A stretch of DNA of 64,000 bases from Thainema sp. (GTDB lineage Bacteria > Cyanobacteriota > Cyanobacteriia > Phormidesmidales > Phormidesmidaceae). The translations under genes were made by a program, and so were the position numbers. A model generated the notes under the pieces. It worked only from the letters and a program-made list of their open reading frames with translations. It was not told the DNA's origin and made no database searches. The stretch's first letter is position 1, and each line of letters starts with the position of its first letter. Shown piece by piece: positions 6,259 through 18,511 of this stretch. Location of the stretch: positions 96,001 to 160,000 of the forward strand of contig JBQLZK010000005.1 in assembly GCA_052168235.1 (NCBI GenBank), written 5' to 3'.

Positions 6259-9200
6259 TCACGTCAGGTCAAACTCATCGAAGGAGACGGTTGGCAAATC
6301 CATTGGCAGAACGTCACGGTTAAAGCTCGCTTTCTGGCTTTGGCGCTGGGTGGCGACTTCAACCGTAACGGCCTCAATTTGCACTTCCAGGCAACCCTTG
6401 GGCACAATTAGTGGTACCACGGTTTCTAGGTAGCCTTGACCATCCGGCTCTAAATCCGCTAGCCAGCGGGGGCCATCTAGAATAATCCGCATTTGGCGAT
6501 CGCTCATCCAAAACTTGATGTAAACCCGCAGTGGATGGGACGGCAAGCGCACCTGCACATCGAGCGCTTCGCCAGCTTTGAGATCGCCTGCTGGAAGCTT
6601 CAACTGGGGCACAGGTAGAGGCGGCAGATTTGACCAGCTATCGATATCGGGTTCGATGGCGTCATTGATCGGGTTGGGATGGGTAGAGTTTGCGATCGCA
6701 GGTGAACCCGACGGGGGCACAACGTCAGCCTCAACATCATCGACAACGATTTCATCGTCATAGATTACGACTTCATTGGCCGTCAGTTCCGCTTCTCGCG
6801 CCAGTTCCTCCGCACTTGGAGATGAATCAAAGTCGGGCAAAAGCGACTCGGCGGGTAACGAAGCGGAATCATTGTCGTTGGGTTGGCCTTCCCTATCAAA
6901 CGACTGAAATTCGCTGAGCGCATCGAAATCAACTCCGTGCGGGCGATAGGCGGTCGAATCCTCGATTTGCTGCATTTGAGCCGCCTGAGCATCAAACGCT
7001 AGAGCCGAGAGCCGAGAGAAGAATCGATCCTGTAGGTTGAGCGACAAAAACGACTGTTCCAGTGGATTCGCAGGCGCGGGTTCAGCGGTTATATCGAGTT
7101 CAAACGTCGGCTCTTCACCCGCTTCATCCATTGCGTCAGCTTGATCCGCAAAATCTAGATCAACTTCGCGAACCGTTACGTCTTCCTCGATCTCTGCATC
7201 ATCGCTCAGGTCATCTGCACGAACTGAATCGATCTCACTCGAGTGATTGACCTGCGGATCGGCTGGTACCTCAAATGGATCAAAACCGATATCAGTCAGT
7301 GACTCATCGCGTGACTCATCTGTTGGCTGCGGTCGATTAGAGCCAGGAACTGCGGATGGAGCAAATTCATTCGCTTGGTCGTCCAGATCCGCTTCAGCCA
7401 ATGATTCGTTATCGGCTAAATCATCTGCGCCGTTATCGACTGAGATCGCATCCTCTCCGTACAGGTTAGCAGTAACCGAATCATCACCATTCGCTGCATC
7501 AACGGAACTCACGACATCCGAAGAAGTCTCCTCTGGATTGGTCGCCACCTGATTCTCAGGCTCATCCCCATTCGCCTGTGCAGTCCCTTGAGCCTGAATC
7601 GGACGCAGAGTCGGGAGTTTGGGCAATAGCGGCTCGAATCGGTTTGAGGAATTAGCGGGAGCAGGTTCAGTTGGCTGGGGGGCTGGCTGCGCTGGAGTCA
7701 ATGCACTGGATTGATCGGTTGATGGCGCACGATTAGCCGAAGCGGCACTGGAACGAATTTGGGGCGGCAGCGACATGCCCAGTTTGGGCTGAAAGAGGGA
7801 GGGCTGGAATGGAATCGCCTGTGGTGGTTGAAACTCGATTTTCGGTTTAGCCGCTGTTTCGCTAGTTGCAGTCTCGCCGCTAGCGGTCTCATCAGCATCT
7901 GCTGTAGCCGATGGCCTCTCTTCATCTGTATTGAGAAATGGTGCCGCCACATCGACAGGTGGCGCGTCAAAATTGAACAGCTCAATCGGGTCAGCCGCTT
8001 CCTCTGCCGCAAACATATCCTGATTGGCGATCGCATCCAGCAGTTCATTCAAATCCGTGGTGATCGAAAACTCCTGAGATGCCGAAACGAGTAGCTGTCC
8101 GCCAACCTCAGCACTGAGGGTCAATTCACCCAGGATGAGATGTGACCGATGGGCAGGCGGTGCGATCGCAACTTGGAAGGTCGCGGGTAAAGGCTGTGCC
8201 GGAACGGTCTGCTGAATCCGATCAATGGTCTGGGCGGTTTGCGGATCAAACAGGCGAATCGTGAGGACGCTTTCGGGCAGCTGGGGCGAGTCGGCCTGAT
8301 CAGCAGATGAATCGGTATTTGGATCGGCAAGTGCGATCGCGCCCGCTAACTGGACGGGCCGACCACCTTTAACAATGTAGGCATCGGTCTGGAGCTGGAG
8401 CTGAACGGGCCGATCAGCTAGCGTTAGCTTACCTGCTGCGTCAGAGGGTAAGGTGCGATCGCGATTCGCCCCCGAATGCTGAGCGACATCCCGCTGCGGA
8501 TCAATGGCGGACTCGACATCTAAAAACGCCTCGTCAACTACATTCTGCGACATCTGCTCGGCCAGGGAACGCCAGTCGGCATGAGTCGGCAGCGGATCAT
8601 GCGGCATCGTAGTTTCAGACGACGGCATGGCTCCATCCCAGTTGTTCGCTGGCGTAACTGTTGCCGAATCAGCCGCAGAATACTCAGCCGGATCGGAGGC
8701 AGAAGCGTCCAAATTGGGCTGCATCTGGGCTAGCTCTGATAATTCAACTTCTAGATCGACATCATCCGCTTCCGCTTCTAACGGAGGCTCTAGCACTACA
8801 TTATCTGCGGCAATTTCTTCTGGCTCATCGACACTAGCTGTCTCCGCATAGGCAGGAACATCAACCTCTTGAGCATCCCGGTCTGACAACGGTAAATCGG
8901 CTAAATCTAAATCGGGTTGGGCATTAGTAGAGAAGGAAGCATCCGGGTCTAAGTCACTGGTAACAGCAGCATTGAGAGCAATTTCATCAACGCTGATATC
9001 TGGATCAGGACGGGACGCATCAACGACTGGGCCTGACCAATCTTCGTCGGTCATCTCCTCATGTGCTACCACTTGCAGCTTGACGGCGTACAGCCAGCGC
9101 TCACCGACAAAATCAGACATTAAGTCATTGGTGCAGCGCAATTCCCACATGCCGGGGCGAAAATGAACAAACGGCACGATAGAAACTAAGCCGGAATTGT

Positions 9201-9408
9201 TGGTATGTCCAGAACGTTTTTTAGTATGCCAGCGGGGCGGCACGTCTTCTGGAGAGGTGTGACGGATTTGAATCTCAACTGGGGTGTCCTTGCGGCTGGA
9301 ACGAGCCACAATCCGATAGCGTCCTTCTAGAATCTCCACATCGGACGATTCCAGCGGGAGCCATGAGCGATCGCCTTTCTTTTGAAGCAAAAATTCCCAG
9401 TATTCCAT
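6259..9408 (-). CDS. Large acidic hypothetical protein (1049 aa); globular-looking N-terminal, middle and C-terminal segments joined by D/E/A/P-rich linkers
   Basis: Long ORF; the N-terminus MEYWEFLLQKKGDRSWLPLE resembles a cyanobacterial hypothetical family I recall. Confidence 0.85.
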   Translation of the reverse strand: MEYWEFLLQKKGDRSWLPLESSDVEILEGRYRIVARSSRKDTPVEIQIRHTSPEDVPPRWHTKKRSGHTNNSGLVSIVPFVHFRPGMWELRCTNDLMSDFVGERWLYAVKLQVVAHEEMTDEDWSGPVVDASRPDPDISVDEIALNAAVTSDLDPDASFSTNAQPDLDLADLPLSDRDAQEVDVPAYAETASVDEPEEIAADNVVLEPPLEAEADDVDLEVELSELAQMQPNLDASASDPAEYSAADSATVTPANNWDGAMPSSETTMPHDPLPTHADWRSLAEQMSQNVVDEAFLDVESAIDPQRDVAQHSGANRDRTLPSDAAGKLTLADRPVQLQLQTDAYIVKGGRPVQLAGAIALADPNTDSSADQADSPQLPESVLTIRLFDPQTAQTIDRIQQTVPAQPLPATFQVAIAPPAHRSHLILGELTLSAEVGGQLLVSASQEFSITTDLNELLDAIANQDMFAAEEAADPIELFNFDAPPVDVAAPFLNTDEERPSATADADETASGETATSETAAKPKIEFQPPQAIPFQPSLFQPKLGMSLPPQIRSSAASANRAPSTDQSSALTPAQPAPQPTEPAPANSSNRFEPLLPKLPTLRPIQAQGTAQANGDEPENQVATNPEETSSDVVSSVDAANGDDSVTANLYGEDAISVDNGADDLADNESLAEADLDDQANEFAPSAVPGSNRPQPTDESRDESLTDIGFDPFEVPADPQVNHSSEIDSVRADDLSDDAEIEEDVTVREVDLDFADQADAMDEAGEEPTFELDITAEPAPANPLEQSFLSLNLQDRFFSRLSALAFDAQAAQMQQIEDSTAYRPHGVDFDALSEFQSFDREGQPNDNDSASLPAESLLPDFDSSPSAEELAREAELTANEVVIYDDEIVVDDVEADVVPPSGSPAIANSTHPNPINDAIEPDIDSWSNLPPLPVPQLKLPAGDLKAGEALDVQVRLPSHPLRVYIKFWMSDRQMRIILDGPRWLADLEPDGQGYLETVVPLIVPKGCLEVQIEAVTVEVATQRQSQKASFNRDVLPMDLPTVSFDEFDLT

Positions 9409-14702: not shown

Positions 14703-14801
14703 GGAAGGCGGATTTAATAAGGTGAAATCTTTGAGGTAGGGACACGGCAGTGCCGTGTCCCTACGGATGAAACGGTTTACAGGCTATTTAATCCACAATC
14801 C
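14703..14801. mobile_element. 99-bp MITE, copy 1 (TTA flanks, imperfect TIRs, internal GTAG-REP)
   Basis: tta|GGAAGGCGGATTTAATA...GTAGGGACACGGCAGTGCCGTGTCCCTAC...TATTTAATCCACAATCC|tta; differs from copy 2 at 3 positions. Confidence 0.85.
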
Positions 14802-15592
14802 TTAGCTGACTGCTGACCAAACTGCTGTTCCCAGCGATCGTGATTTTCGCGAGCCACCTGCACAACGGGCGACGCGGAAACGAGCTTGAAGGCCAGCTCA
14901 TTGATCCAAGACAGCGGAGGACGCAGCGGACGGGCAATATCCAGGAACAGAACCGCTCGGTAGCCGTTTGTCTCGTTCCAGACCTCGTGGTAGAAGGTGT
15001 CGTCAAAAATCAGGCTTTTGCCTTCTTCCCAGTGAGTAATTTGTCCGTTGACGCGGATACGGCATTTATCTTGGGGTTCCGGTACGCGCAAACCTAGGTG
15101 ATAGCGCACCAGTCCTTTATGTTTGCCTCGGTGTTCGGGAATATGCTTACCGGGAGCCAGGATGGAGAAGAACGCCACCTTTAGTCCGGGAATGTCCTTA
15201 ATTAACTCCCAGGTTTGGGGACAGCGATCGCAGTTTCCCTTGGCCACATAATCGAAGGCGCAGAAGAAGTAGGTTTTCCAGAGGTTATCACCCGCGATTC
15301 GATTTTGCCGGGGCGAGATGTCCTGAAAGTTGGGTAGCGCATCGGCATATTCCAACACCTGATCCAGTTCTTGGCGGATCACCTGCCAGTTGTCTTCCAG
15401 AGACTGCGCCCAGGGAAATTGTTCGGTCTCAAAAAAAACGCGATCGCCCACTTTTGAGAACGAGCAGACAAATCGCTCAAACTGGCGATATAGCGCATGG
15501 TCAAAGACCGGATGCAAAGGGGTTTGGGGATCGAGCGGGGCGATGGGTATCGCTGCCTGGGGTTCAATTTGATTAACAGTTAGGCGGGTCAT
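14777..15592 (-). CDS. Aspartyl/asparaginyl beta-hydroxylase family Fe(II)/2OG dioxygenase (LpxO/OlsC-like)
   Basis: LEDNWQVIRQE, CPQT, FSILAPGKHIPEHRG, RYHLGL, WEEGKSLIFDDTFYHEVWN, RAVLFLD. Confidence 0.9.
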   Translation of the reverse strand: MTRLTVNQIEPQAAIPIAPLDPQTPLHPVFDHALYRQFERFVCSFSKVGDRVFFETEQFPWAQSLEDNWQVIRQELDQVLEYADALPNFQDISPRQNRIAGDNLWKTYFFCAFDYVAKGNCDRCPQTWELIKDIPGLKVAFFSILAPGKHIPEHRGKHKGLVRYHLGLRVPEPQDKCRIRVNGQITHWEEGKSLIFDDTFYHEVWNETNGYRAVLFLDIARPLRPPLSWINELAFKLVSASPVVQVARENHDRWEQQFGQQSAKDCGLNSL

Positions 15593-15619
15593 AGATTCGG
15601 AGAAATGCCAGATCTCGAA

Positions 15620-17326
15620 TTAAAGCAAAATGGGAGTCGGTTGAGCAAATCGAGGTAACGTCACCGTCTGTTCAACCACAAAGTCCGCCAGCAGGTTGCG
15701 ATCGCAACTAATGTGCGGAAACTTGAGCTGCGAGTTTTCCACTCCCGGTCGCAGCGGACGCTGACGCAAAATGTCAAAACTGCCCGCTGCCAGAATATTC
15801 AACTGCGGTGCCGGAATATCGTTATTTAGACGCTTCACCTCATAGGAATGGTTGTGCTGACACATCAGCTGGTCAAACATCGCCAGAAACCGCTCCGAAT
15901 GAGTCAGTATTTCACCCTCGGCTAATTCGATATTGAGGATATAGTGCGATCGCAGAATGTCCTCTGACAGCGTCACACAAAAATCTTCCAGTTGGATATC
16001 AAATTCCTGCTGGAGTAGCTTCAAAACCTGAATCACCTGATACTCAGAGGTTTTCTCGGTTGTGGCAGACAGGACACCGCCCTGCCGATAGCGAAACACA
16101 ATCAAAGGGGTTTGGTTATAGAACCCTTCAACTTGCACGACATCGCCAATATCGTAGCGATAGAAGCCCGCATAGTTTGTGATCAAAATCCGGTAGCGCT
16201 CTCCTACTTGTAATTCGTGTGGCAACAGCGTTTGGGGCTGATCTATGTCCCACTGATCTTCGGGAATGAACTCAAAAAAGTTGCTGCTGAGCGCTAAAAC
16301 CGTGCCATCGGTATTGAAATTGTGGTGAACGCCATAGGTCGATTCTGATGACGCATACGTACCACCGAAAATCGGCGTCTCGCCAAAGTACTCAGGGAAG
16401 CGCTCAAAATAAAAATCAGACGTGCCGCCACGGGCCGTGATGATACAAGATAGATCCGGCCAAGCAAACTGGGGAGTTAGCCGTCCTTCTCGATTCAGCA
16501 CTTGAGCCAGTTCTTTGGCCCGTTGGGGTGCTGCCCTGAACTGCCGCTGAAGTTGCGATCGCTCTTGAGGCGTCAGCGCAATATGACGTGAAATTTGACC
16601 ACTAGCTAGATCCTCTATCAGCCAATCCCCCTGACGCTCTAACTCATCACACAGTTGAAGCGCAATAAGCGGAAATGTAGCCGCAAATACACGCAGATGG
16701 GCATTCCGCAGCGCAAACAACAGCGACGTATAGTTACGCGCCTGAGTATCCTTGACCAGCATGGTCTCAAACGGCTGGGCAAAAATCTGACGGTATAGAC
16801 CATTGGCAAGCTGCACCGAGCCACCGCTGATATGACCGTAGTCAATACCACCGCTAGTCTTGCCAACTTTGCGCGCTGATCCCGTCAACAACGTCTTACC
16901 TAAGGGCAAATCCCGGCGCTGAGCCGCTTCAAACAGATAGCCCATAGCGCTTTGATTCGCTCGTCCAATAAATCGCTTTGAGCGTTTCGTTACCGGAATC
17001 ATCTTTTGGCTACCCGTTGAACCACTCGTCATATTGATATAAATCAGCGGATCAGGAGTGACGACGTTTTGCTCACCAGCCGCAGCCCGTTCCAGGTAAG
17101 GCTCATAGACACCGTAGGGCAAAATTGGTACTCGCTGACGAAATTCTGCCACCGTCGTAATACGATCCACGCCAAACGTTTGCCCCAGTTCGGTTCCTGA
17201 CTGAATCTTGAGTAAAGACTGTAAAAATTGTGCTTGAGCCTCAATCGATCGATACGTTTGCCGCTCTAGGTTAGCCTTGGCCCGTTTAGCCGCTAACCCA
17301 ATTAGCGAAAAGATTGGATTTTCCAT
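15620..17326 (-). CDS. GH3 family acyl-acid amido synthetase
   Basis: TSGSTGSQKMIP P-loop, YASSE, FFEFIP, GFYRYDIGDVV: the GH3/ANL motifs. Confidence 0.9.
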   Translation of the reverse strand: MENPIFSLIGLAAKRAKANLERQTYRSIEAQAQFLQSLLKIQSGTELGQTFGVDRITTVAEFRQRVPILPYGVYEPYLERAAAGEQNVVTPDPLIYINMTSGSTGSQKMIPVTKRSKRFIGRANQSAMGYLFEAAQRRDLPLGKTLLTGSARKVGKTSGGIDYGHISGGSVQLANGLYRQIFAQPFETMLVKDTQARNYTSLLFALRNAHLRVFAATFPLIALQLCDELERQGDWLIEDLASGQISRHIALTPQERSQLQRQFRAAPQRAKELAQVLNREGRLTPQFAWPDLSCIITARGGTSDFYFERFPEYFGETPIFGGTYASSESTYGVHHNFNTDGTVLALSSNFFEFIPEDQWDIDQPQTLLPHELQVGERYRILITNYAGFYRYDIGDVVQVEGFYNQTPLIVFRYRQGGVLSATTEKTSEYQVIQVLKLLQQEFDIQLEDFCVTLSEDILRSHYILNIELAEGEILTHSERFLAMFDQLMCQHNHSYEVKRLNNDIPAPQLNILAAGSFDILRQRPLRPGVENSQLKFPHISCDRNLLADFVVEQTVTLPRFAQPTPILL

Positions 17327-17771
17327 GCGAATCAAGTCCTCACACCACCTCAAACGATGCACTTGCTACTGATTGAACTGGATTTACAGAAATACATCAA
17401 TTTTTGTATCTTGTAATCCACTAGCCTTATCGATACAGCGCCCAATCATCTGAGCCTGAATGCATCACTCTGATAACCGATCACCGATTCGTCATTCCGG
17501 AAATTGTCACCTTTACACCAACTGGGATTTGGGTTTTAGCGGGAACAATCTCAGCCGAAATAGCCAAGCACCGTACTTGAGCAGAATGGCGATACATTTC
17601 TTAAGCCTAGGGTGGCTTCAGATCAAATGAAACAAAACATGGGCCAGATAGTGAATCGTCTTTCGTTGGCCTGCTCTCTTTATTCGCTGCAATATTCCAC
17701 CAGAACCGTTAGCTAACTCAGCTAATTTGCTCTGTATGATGAAGAAATATTGCAGATACTGCGACAGCGAG

Positions 17772-18412: not shown

Positions 18413-18511
18413 GGAAGGCGGATTTAATAAGGTGAAATCTTTGAGGTAGGGACACGGCATTGCCGTGTCCCTACAGATGAAACGGTTTACAGGTTATTTA
18501 ATCCACAATCC
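18413..18511. mobile_element. 99-bp MITE, copy 2 (same orientation as copy 1)
   Basis: tta|GGAAGGCGG...CCACAATCC|tta; near-identical to 14703-14801. Confidence 0.85.

Follow-up and report, generated by a model that had tools for sequence, protein, structure and literature searches.

A GH3-family ligase gene and an OlsC/LpxO-related hydroxylase gene paired in Thainema sp. are probable members of a co-inherited, ceramide-like module of cyanobacteria

Background

OlsH, a GH3 protein of the planctomycete Singulisphaera acidiphila, uses ATP to join a fatty acid to ornithine, giving N-acyl-ornithine, with the O-acyltransferase OlsI acting next (PMC12493201). The enzyme uses free fatty acids, with hydroxy-palmitate as a poor substrate, requires the serine of motif I for activity and yielded none of its product when tried in living E. 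coli. OlsC, OlsD and LpxO are 2-hydroxylases of lipid acyl chains (PMC12971839). Described here is a locus in which genes related to both kinds of enzyme, a GH3-family acyl-acid amido synthetase and an Fe(II)/2-oxoglutarate (2OG) hydroxylase of the AspH/LpxO/OlsC/OlsD family, stand side by side in the cyanobacterium Thainema sp. (Phormidesmidaceae; assembly GCA_052168235.1). The window, that is, the whole stretch of DNA analysed, comprises 64,000 nt (contig JBQLZK010000005.1, positions 96,001 to 160,000 of the forward strand). A preliminary description made from these letters alone had taken the two genes to be a compact pathway to a hydroxylated N-acyl amino acid and bacterial GH3 proteins to be largely uncharacterised, a view outdated since OlsH was characterised in 2025.

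Bacterial ceramide synthesis proceeds in the order Spt, bCerS and CerR (PMC11087976), and yghO/ECD_02850 is presented as a homolog of Caulobacter CC_1154, an acyl-CoA N-acyltransferase required for dihydroceramide (PMC9386255). Among cyanobacteria, ceramides are attributed to just two species, Moorea producens and Scytonema julianum, and genes behind cyanobacterial sphingolipids had not been reported as of 2022 (PMC8895605); ornithine lipids are not reported from this group (PMC12971839). The ATP-dependent taurine transferase of cerilipin is listed as still unidentified (PMC12971839).

The gene pair

Both genes are encoded on the minus strand. The GH3 gene (17326..15620) encodes a protein of 568 aa counted from the ATG, with an in-frame GTG at 17362 as an alternative start that would add 12 aa; it is followed, after a gap of 27 bp (15593..15619), by the hydroxylase gene (15592..14777; 271 aa), which confirmed the two intact, co-oriented genes of the preliminary description. 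The GH3 protein matched Pfam families PF03321, PF23571 and PF23572 (GH3, E 7.6e-71; GH3_M, 7.6e-26; GH3_C, 2.4e-17), an assignment shared by fold, NCBIfam score, tree and residue typing (see below). Its three nucleotide-binding motifs were TSGSTG (motif I, residues 100-105, 17012..17029), YASSE (motif II, residues 324-328, 16343..16357) and YRYDIGD (motif III, residues 389-395, 16142..16162), in which S101, G102, T104, G105, E328, R390, Y391, D392, G394 and D395 were invariant among 17 aligned homologs. An AlphaFold model built on the 17-sequence alignment (pLDDT 83.6) had plant GH3s as its closest structures (4epl, E 8.3e-38, TM 0.66), and a comparison with the ESM Atlas gave back the same GH3 family, as it did the GNAT family for the N-acyltransferase described below.

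The hydroxylase, assigned by Pfam, NCBIfam and alignment, matched Asp_Arg_Hydrox (E 5.3e-52) and was the sole PF05118 match in the genome. With HIPEH at residue 150 and FDDTFYHEVWN at residue 196, all five motifs quoted earlier for the pair were located intact. H154, D197, H202 and R212 were invariant in 53 aligned proteins and D198 in 52; the protein keeps the His/Asp/His/Arg set of human AspH, residues that presumably bind Fe(II) and 2OG as they do in AspH. The two genes, with so short a gap, likely form an operon; a promoter and terminator scan at the pair found sites no more numerous than in shuffled sequences.

Conservation of the pairing

A class-wide sample of 401 genomes, spread over families and not proportional, was searched, with hydroxylases counted at ≥60% identity and members of the GH3 clade (about 50% identity) at E ≤1e-100. 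The hydroxylase was found in 78 genomes and the GH3 clade in 114. The GH3 clade was present in 77 of the 78 hydroxylase-bearing genomes, the lone exception being an 80% complete assembly without a PF03321 match, whereas the hydroxylase was absent from 37 of the 114 GH3-clade genomes. These counts suggest that the hydroxylase needs some factor inherited along with GH3 and that GH3 can do without the hydroxylase.

In at least 22 of the 78 genomes, representing 15 genera and five families, a co-oriented GH3 gene was followed by a hydroxylase match at a distance of no more than 600 bp. Among the remaining hydroxylases, at least 10 were within 6 kb of a GH3 gene, one was at 6-15 kb and three were far away on the same contig; for 42 of the 78, many of them on short contigs, no GH3 was among the listed matches on the same contig. 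The adjacency counts are lower bounds, 14 of the 164 GH3 matches not being included. Among 301 genomes sampled across the phylum, three hydroxylases at 66-67% identity each directly followed a GH3 gene, and a DNA-pattern search of GTDB genomes returned three loci. The pairing exceeds chance and is conserved, as a gene-neighbourhood check of the early proposal had to establish. The compact two-gene pathway itself did not hold up, given the 37 GH3-clade genomes without the hydroxylase and the majority of hydroxylase copies not seen beside GH3.

The co-inherited module

Clustering by open reading frames of 96 loci, selected around GH3 or hydroxylase matches and not at random, revealed a recurring set of neighbours: a major facilitator superfamily (MFS) transporter in 29 loci, an alpha-oxoamine synthase in 23, a Rieske oxygenase in 22 and a small FA_hydroxylase in 16, followed by JmjC (12), amidohydrolase (12), Mpo1-like (11), cysteate synthase (8), GNAT (6) and epimerase-type reductase (5) genes. 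The hydroxylase, MFS, Rieske, synthase, GNAT, reductase, GH3 and FA_hydroxylase genes all fell within 20 kb in locus L136, as did nearly all module genes in L200; GNAT was clustered together with GH3 in these two loci and in L061, L064 and L066. Thainema sp. carries orthologs of the synthase (77% identity), GNAT (74%), reductase (67%), FA_hydroxylase (77%), Rieske (60%), MFS (49%) and JmjC (43%) proteins, spread over five other contigs, while no cysteate synthase, amidohydrolase or Mpo1 gene was found in its genome.

A chosen panel of 80 genomes served to assess co-inheritance: 26 carried both GH3 and the hydroxylase, 22 carried GH3 alone and 32 lacked the GH3 clade. These genomes are related, so that the counts are not independent events. 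The alpha-oxoamine synthase, the YghO/bCerS-type GNAT N-acyltransferase, the epimerase-type reductase and the small di-iron FA_hydroxylase were each present in 47 of the 48 GH3-positive versus one of the 32 GH3-negative genomes, the single negative-side FA_hydroxylase being only 49% identical; the Rieske oxygenase was present in 43/48 versus 1/32. The test covered these five genes, with MFS and JmjC outside it. Within the family of the window genome, module genes were found in 6/6 GH3-positive versus 0/8 GH3-negative genomes. Synthase, GNAT and reductase were nearly always single-copy and mostly 60-80% identical over 16 families. One GH3-negative genome, G002, has the synthase, GNAT, reductase and Rieske genes and no PF03321 match; the MFS gene is the last of its cluster before the contig breaks off, at the place where L199 and L200 have GH3, and its GH3 is possibly missing through an assembly gap. 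Both genes of the pair very probably belong to this ceramide-like module; what had been regarded as a stand-alone pair is part of a co-inherited set of about eight genes.

Two further associations were observed around the module. The Mpo1-like gene occurred in one of the 26 hydroxylase-positive versus 16 of the 22 hydroxylase-negative GH3 genomes, a near mutual exclusion that led us to reject the Mpo1-like dioxygenase as a degrader of the 2-hydroxy acyl chains made by the hydroxylase; the gene co-travels with the amidohydrolase, possibly reflecting an alternative tailoring route or lineage history. A deaminase-like and a PlsC-like acyltransferase gene, as a pair, border MFS-Rieske in Thainema sp. 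(L121, G000:C3:109943-114480) and GH3 in L019 and L022, an arrangement that might mark a former site of the module or reflect O-acylation as one of its steps.

The hydroxylase and its relatives

The best NCBIfam score of the hydroxylase was to OlsC (NF052565, 254.4 bits against a cut-off of 450), with LpxO (NF033391) at 137.5 against 500. No membrane helix was predicted, the hydropathy maximum being 1.17 versus 2.42 for Salmonella LpxO. The genome contained no match to PF13444, which we take to be the marker of OlsB-type ornithine-lipid synthases; OlsF was not searched for.

Among 72,556 plasmids, the best match (53% identity) occurred in two records. The one examined, from Pseudomonas sp. BYT-5, contains a cluster encoding an oxoamine synthase, an acyl carrier protein (ACP), an epimerase, a fatty acyl-AMP ligase (FAAL), a YghO-type acetyltransferase, lptFG and a lipid kinase, with no GH3 annotated; a match in P. 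veronii (38%) lies in a similar sphingoid-type cluster, again without annotated GH3. The clusters of pBYT5-2, which is conjugative, and of the P. veronii plasmid (L182/L186 and L183) are complete sphingolipid-type clusters, each with an AspH-family hydroxylase. Four other matches at 38-41% (Phyllobacterium, Pseudoroseomonas, Novosphingobium and Mycobacterium) lie outside sphingoid-type clusters.

A FastTree analysis of 53 sequences grouped the module-linked clade with a sister clade at 50-56% identity (support 0.999). Five of ten sister-clade loci (L083, L086, L087, L192 and L193) were FAAL-ACP-synthase-SDR (short-chain dehydrogenase/reductase) or PKS (polyketide synthase)-synthase clusters, which recall the PKS-derived sphingolipids described in PMC12134224, and G558 and G603, which carry the sister hydroxylase, lack the GH3 clade. 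L192, L193 and L083 represent a second cyanobacterial sphingoid-type cluster with the order FAAL, hydroxylase, FAAL, ACP and oxoamine synthase, in genomes without the GH3 clade; three tandem hydroxylase genes and an SDR gene were observed in L192 and L193. Around the module-linked hydroxylase, 35 wide loci were inspected: GH3 lay within 6 kb in 23 and the synthase, Rieske or MFS gene was present in 22, six loci having synthase, Rieske or MFS without GH3 within 6 kb and six having neither.

Because the sister hydroxylases sit in sphingoid-type clusters lacking GH3, the hydroxylase likely acts without GH3, and the simplest reading is that it is likely an acyl 2-hydroxylase for a sphingoid-type lipid for which GH3 is not needed. 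The earlier coupling of the hydroxylase to a GH3 product is thereby called into question, since both the sister clade and the best proteobacterial match are found in GH3-free clusters of this type. We consider it reasonably probable that its substrate is the acyl chain of the lipid made by the module.

It could also be supposed that the adjacency is incidental, an LpxO-like modifier of lipid A having come to lie beside a GH3 that conjugates auxin or aromatic acids, as the structural closeness of plant GH3s and a PagL-like gene near the sister clade (L086 and L087) might suggest; this is highly improbable in view of the co-occurrence in 77/78 genomes, the tight linkage to the module, the score far below the LpxO cut-off and a protein without membrane helix, unlike LpxO.

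Resemblance to ceramide synthesis

The GNAT protein aligned over its full length with YghO proteins at 30-33% identity (27-36% when proteins annotated as 'dATP pyrophosphohydrolase' were included), and a protein of Moorena producens, a reported cerebroside producer, was 73% identical to it. The closest solved structure to the synthase was Sphingobacterium SPT, and the pyridoxal-phosphate (PLP) lysine is kept; it is the second oxoamine synthase of the genome, the other copy being 31% identical. The reductase is epimerase-type, adjoins GNAT and is co-inherited. Around the module genes of the 96 loci, neither a dedicated ACP nor an acyl-ACP synthetase was seen repeatedly, whereas the Pseudomonas clusters have both. 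A Streptomyces plasmid cluster (L184) encodes an oxoamine synthase, a YghO-type GNAT, an epimerase and a condensation-domain protein; its GNAT (34%) and reductase (35%) are nearer the cyanobacterial enzymes than the Pseudomonas ones are.

The product might instead be an exported small molecule, such as an amphiphilic signal, a chelator or an allelochemical, of which GH3 and the hydroxylase would catalyse the finishing steps. The MFS protein, whose gene is among the commonest neighbours and whose weak best matches are drug and siderophore exporters, the many variable oxygenases, and the cyanobacterial record, with no ornithine lipids reported (PMC12971839) and ceramides from two species only (PMC8895605), are in line with this; yet the conservation of single-copy synthase, GNAT and reductase over 16 families is more like that of an envelope function, the GNAT family works in dihydroceramide synthesis (PMC9386255), and the cerebroside producer has the GNAT. 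An exported product is for these reasons improbable.

The GH3 ligase and its neighbours

The sole NCBIfam match of the GH3 protein was OlsH (NF052613; 114.9 bits, cut-off 620); with the hydroxylase also scoring below its cut-offs, neither protein belongs to the OlsH, OlsC or LpxO equivalogs. The motif I serine on which OlsH activity depends (PMC12493201) is kept. No OlsI-like alpha/beta-hydrolase gene was found beside this GH3, and none recurred beside GH3 in the 96 loci. Among 74 aligned GH3 copies two sequence types were distinguished, one with N149 and M220 (35 copies) and one with neither (38), a single copy being mixed; tandem or nearby pairs usually comprised one copy of each type, and the Thainema protein is of the type without N149/M220.

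Enzymes of amino acid metabolism flank several GH3 copies. Cysteate synthase (query score 517 bits to TIGR03844, cut-off 324.9) was found in 11 of the 48 GH3-positive versus none of the 32 GH3-negative genomes of the panel, in all 11 within about 1.1 kb of GH3; in the tree, five of the linked GH3s formed one clade (support 1.0) and two another. Other GH3 copies are flanked by genes for a PLP decarboxylase, an Asp/Glu racemase or another PALP enzyme. In L199 (5079-9039) the racemase gene lies between GH3 and a cysteate-synthase-like gene, and in L196 (6565-9598) a different PALP enzyme gene precedes GH3, arrangements which suggest that GH3 may act on D-amino acids or on unusual ones. The neighbouring genes as a whole point to an amino acid as nucleophile: GH3 appears to take the amino acid made next door, with different paralogs for different ones, and likely adds it as a head group. 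A cysteate or taurine head group was rejected for Thainema sp., since no cysteate synthase was found in this genome (best score 81.7 against the TIGR03844 cut-off of 324.9) or in G369 of the same genus.

The carboxyl group that GH3 would activate could be created by the Rieske oxygenase, because the best NCBIfam match of the latter is SdmA (243.6 versus 600 bits), which oxidises a sterol methyl group before decarboxylation (PMC10202945). Its absence from five of the 48 GH3 genomes weakens the Rieske enzyme as an obligatory source and excludes it as a universal one. The carboxyl may instead come from the amino acid used by the synthase, or GH3 may, like OlsH, activate a free fatty acid.

Proposed role of the pair

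Tentatively, and a little short of an even chance, the pair is proposed to tailor the predicted lipid of the module, GH3 as head-group ligase and the hydroxylase as acyl 2-hydroxylase. The atypical alpha-oxoamine synthase would catalyse the condensation of an amino acid, which may be other than serine, and an acyl thioester. The product would be N-acylated by the YghO/bCerS-type GNAT, and the reductase would reduce the ketone. The lipid would be oxidised, in a lineage-specific manner, by the di-iron hydroxylase, the Rieske and JmjC enzymes and the 2OG hydroxylase, the last placing a 2-hydroxyl on the fatty-acyl chain. GH3 would use ATP to adenylate a carboxyl of the lipid and amidate it with an amino acid as polar head, and the MFS protein would flip or export the lipid. 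The two enzymes probably act at different positions of the module lipid. That GH3 amidates the ceramide-type lipid itself, and not a separate N-acyl amino acid, is likewise held with slightly less than even confidence. The product first proposed thus survives in part: the compound is likely to be some hydroxylated amino-lipid, but not one from a compact two-gene pathway.

Besides the relatedness of the panel genomes, several observations weigh against this proposal. The synthase scores below every SPT cut-off (172.7 versus 640 bits) and has GTSNSSCS near the substrate site, where Sphingobacterium SPT has GTGCAGSR; the reductase is 24% identical to the epimerase of the Pseudomonas sphingolipid cluster, with HpnA as its best NCBIfam score. 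The tree leaves the affinity of the cyanobacterial hydroxylases, sphingolipid-cluster versus OlsC-like, at support 0.07-0.31. A Rieske ortholog is missing in the five GH3 genomes mentioned above, three of them single-contig; four of the five have only a 36-38% paralog, which occurs in module-less genomes too. OlsH, the sole characterised bacterial GH3 found in the literature search, uses free fatty acids. The GH3s within 1.3 kb of a hydroxylase are all of the second type (17/39 versus 0/35), which fits direct coupling of GH3 and hydroxylase, is confounded by kinship and may reflect function or mere descent. Because of the atypical synthase and the distant reductase, 'ceramide' denotes resemblance only: for the term 'ceramide-like', one step is well founded, two steps are plausible, and the predicted product is unproven.

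Some of these points would suit a pathway of the OlsH kind, in which GH3 would couple an amino acid with a free fatty acid and the neighbouring enzyme would 2-hydroxylate the resulting N-acyl amino acid, as OlsD does ornithine lipid, giving a separate, co-inherited amino-lipid or signal. The OlsH precedent (PMC12493201), direct adjacency in at least 22/78 genomes of five families, the single type of the 17 hydroxylase-adjacent GH3s, the amino-acid-making enzymes flanking GH3 copies and the dispensability of the Rieske enzyme all agree with it. It leaves unexplained, however, the tie of GH3 to synthase, GNAT and reductase (47/48 versus 1/32); neither an OlsI-like hydrolase nor any other O-acyltransferase is a recurrent neighbour of GH3, the PlsC-like gene being confined to L019 and L022; and the hydroxylase occurs with synthase, Rieske or MFS without GH3 within 6 kb in 6/35 wide loci, its sister clade doing without GH3 as well. 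Such a pathway is accordingly judged unlikely, while deserving a definite place among the explanations.

GH3 could alternatively activate a fatty acid, perhaps the 2-hydroxy acid of its neighbour, and acylate the long-chain base with it at the amine, serving either as an additional ceramide synthase or in place of the acyl-ACP synthetase that proteobacterial clusters have. GH3 is an adenylating enzyme, and neither an acyl-ACP synthetase nor a dedicated ACP recurs near the module as they do in the Pseudomonas clusters, but 47/48 GH3 genomes have the GNAT N-acyltransferase, which also shares clusters with GH3; the nucleophile implied by the link between GH3 paralogs and cysteate synthase is an amino acid; and hydroxy-palmitate is a poor substrate of OlsH. 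This role of GH3 is improbable.

Returning to the proposed tailoring of the module lipid, a more specific form is conceivable, though rather doubtful: many non-heterocystous cyanobacteria might make a so far undescribed class of amino-acid-capped sphingolipid analogues from a carboxyl-bearing long-chain base, for example one derived from aspartate, that would be N-acylated, reduced, 2-hydroxylated and amidated by interchangeable GH3 paralogs. Aspartate would then be the carbon analogue of the cysteate of capnine, and in genomes with cysteate synthase the heads might be cysteate or taurine, in Thainema sp. another amino acid, an extension that is equally doubtful.

Flanking region and other genes

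The pair is flanked by ndhH and by a divergent ABA4-like gene (PF14108, 17784-18263, plus strand). The GC contents of the two genes (50% and 53%) match that of the genome (50%) and of the neighbours, and a horizontal-island origin of the pair was rejected on these grounds. The genome comprises 7.5 Mb in 205 contigs, is 99.99% complete and is cyanobacterial in its gene content and its closest named relatives. The ABA4-like gene was discarded as a pathway member: among loci L001-L036 it stands beside GH3 only here and in L004, a relative at 91% identity.

A 29-bp palindromic dispersed repeat with a 13-bp hairpin is located at 14736..14764 (strand not assigned), 12 bp past the hydroxylase stop, where the hairpin may terminate or stabilise the transcript. 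The genome contains 57 copies (≤3 mismatches), and those at 14736-14764 and 18446-18474 flank the block of hydroxylase, GH3 and ABA4-like genes. Elsewhere in the window, nt 6259-9408 (minus strand) encode an acidic low-complexity protein of 1049 aa without Pfam match.

Three further GH3 copies were observed in the genome. One, a second member of the same GH3 clade, is broken (L002, G000:C51:15437-16191), with about 110 N-terminal and about 130 C-terminal codons side by side in different frames and the middle gone, and adjoins a VTT/DedA gene and a TetR-like gene. Two are more remote, L001 (G000:C19:42466-48402; 29% identity), which lies in an operon with genes for a haem-oxygenase-like oxidase, an enolase-family enzyme and a peptidase S15, and L003 (G000:C8:32412-34295; 26%).

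Significance and comparison with known systems

A literature search found neither the pair nor the module described; supplementary genome lists (PMC11334938 and PMC12971839), which were outside the search, may include these genes, and subscription journals were mostly uncovered. Taken singly, each enzyme belongs to a type whose chemistry is already known. With the GH3 clade marking the module in 114 of the 401 sampled genomes, the pair makes it testable whether these cyanobacteria have a ceramide-type envelope lipid and whether GH3 attaches its head group. If the proposal is true, no GH3 before this one would have been a head-group ligase for sphingolipids, and the module would supply the genes behind phosphorus-free ceramide-type lipids of cyanobacteria as well as candidate OlsC/LpxO-family enzymes for bacterial ceramide 2-hydroxylation; GH3 would also become a candidate for the ATP-dependent taurine transferase of cerilipin, as we infer.

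The capnine (sulfonolipid) pathway consists of cysteate synthase, cysteate-C-fatty acyltransferase (named as in PDB 28eh) and a reductase. Some module-bearing relatives of Thainema sp. have a true cysteate synthase, as that pathway does, but its gene adjoins GH3 and not the oxoamine synthase, occurs in 11/48 genomes and was not found in the Thainema genome. Plant GH3s of groups I-III (JAR1, PBS3/GH3.12 and GH3.5/3.6) share the fold (TM about 0.66) and the catalytic motifs, whereas their identity to this GH3 is about 21-23% and their auxin, jasmonate and benzoate substrates have no support here. OlsH/OlsI is similar in its bacterial GH3 fold, the three nucleotide-binding motifs and a predicted ATP-dependent formation of an acid-amino acid amide in lipid synthesis; the Thainema GH3 differs in having no OlsI or OlsG neighbour and in its ties to the oxoamine synthase-GNAT-reductase module. 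OlsC, OlsD and LpxO are of the same Pfam family as the hydroxylase, in which the His/Asp/His/Arg set is intact, but the latter falls below the OlsC and LpxO cut-offs, lacks the membrane anchor of LpxO and has relatives in sphingoid-type clusters.

The Spt-bCerS-CerR pathway of Caulobacter and of the E. coli BL21 yghO cluster (PMC9386255 and PMC11087976) likewise combines an oxoamine synthase, a YghO-type N-acyltransferase and an epimerase-type reductase, often encoded by adjacent genes, and Pseudomonas copies of that cluster contain homologs of this hydroxylase. The cyanobacterial module differs in its atypical synthase below the SPT cut-offs, its distant reductase and no dedicated ACP or acyl-ACP synthetase seen, and it has GH3, MFS, Rieske, di-iron and 2OG hydroxylase genes added.

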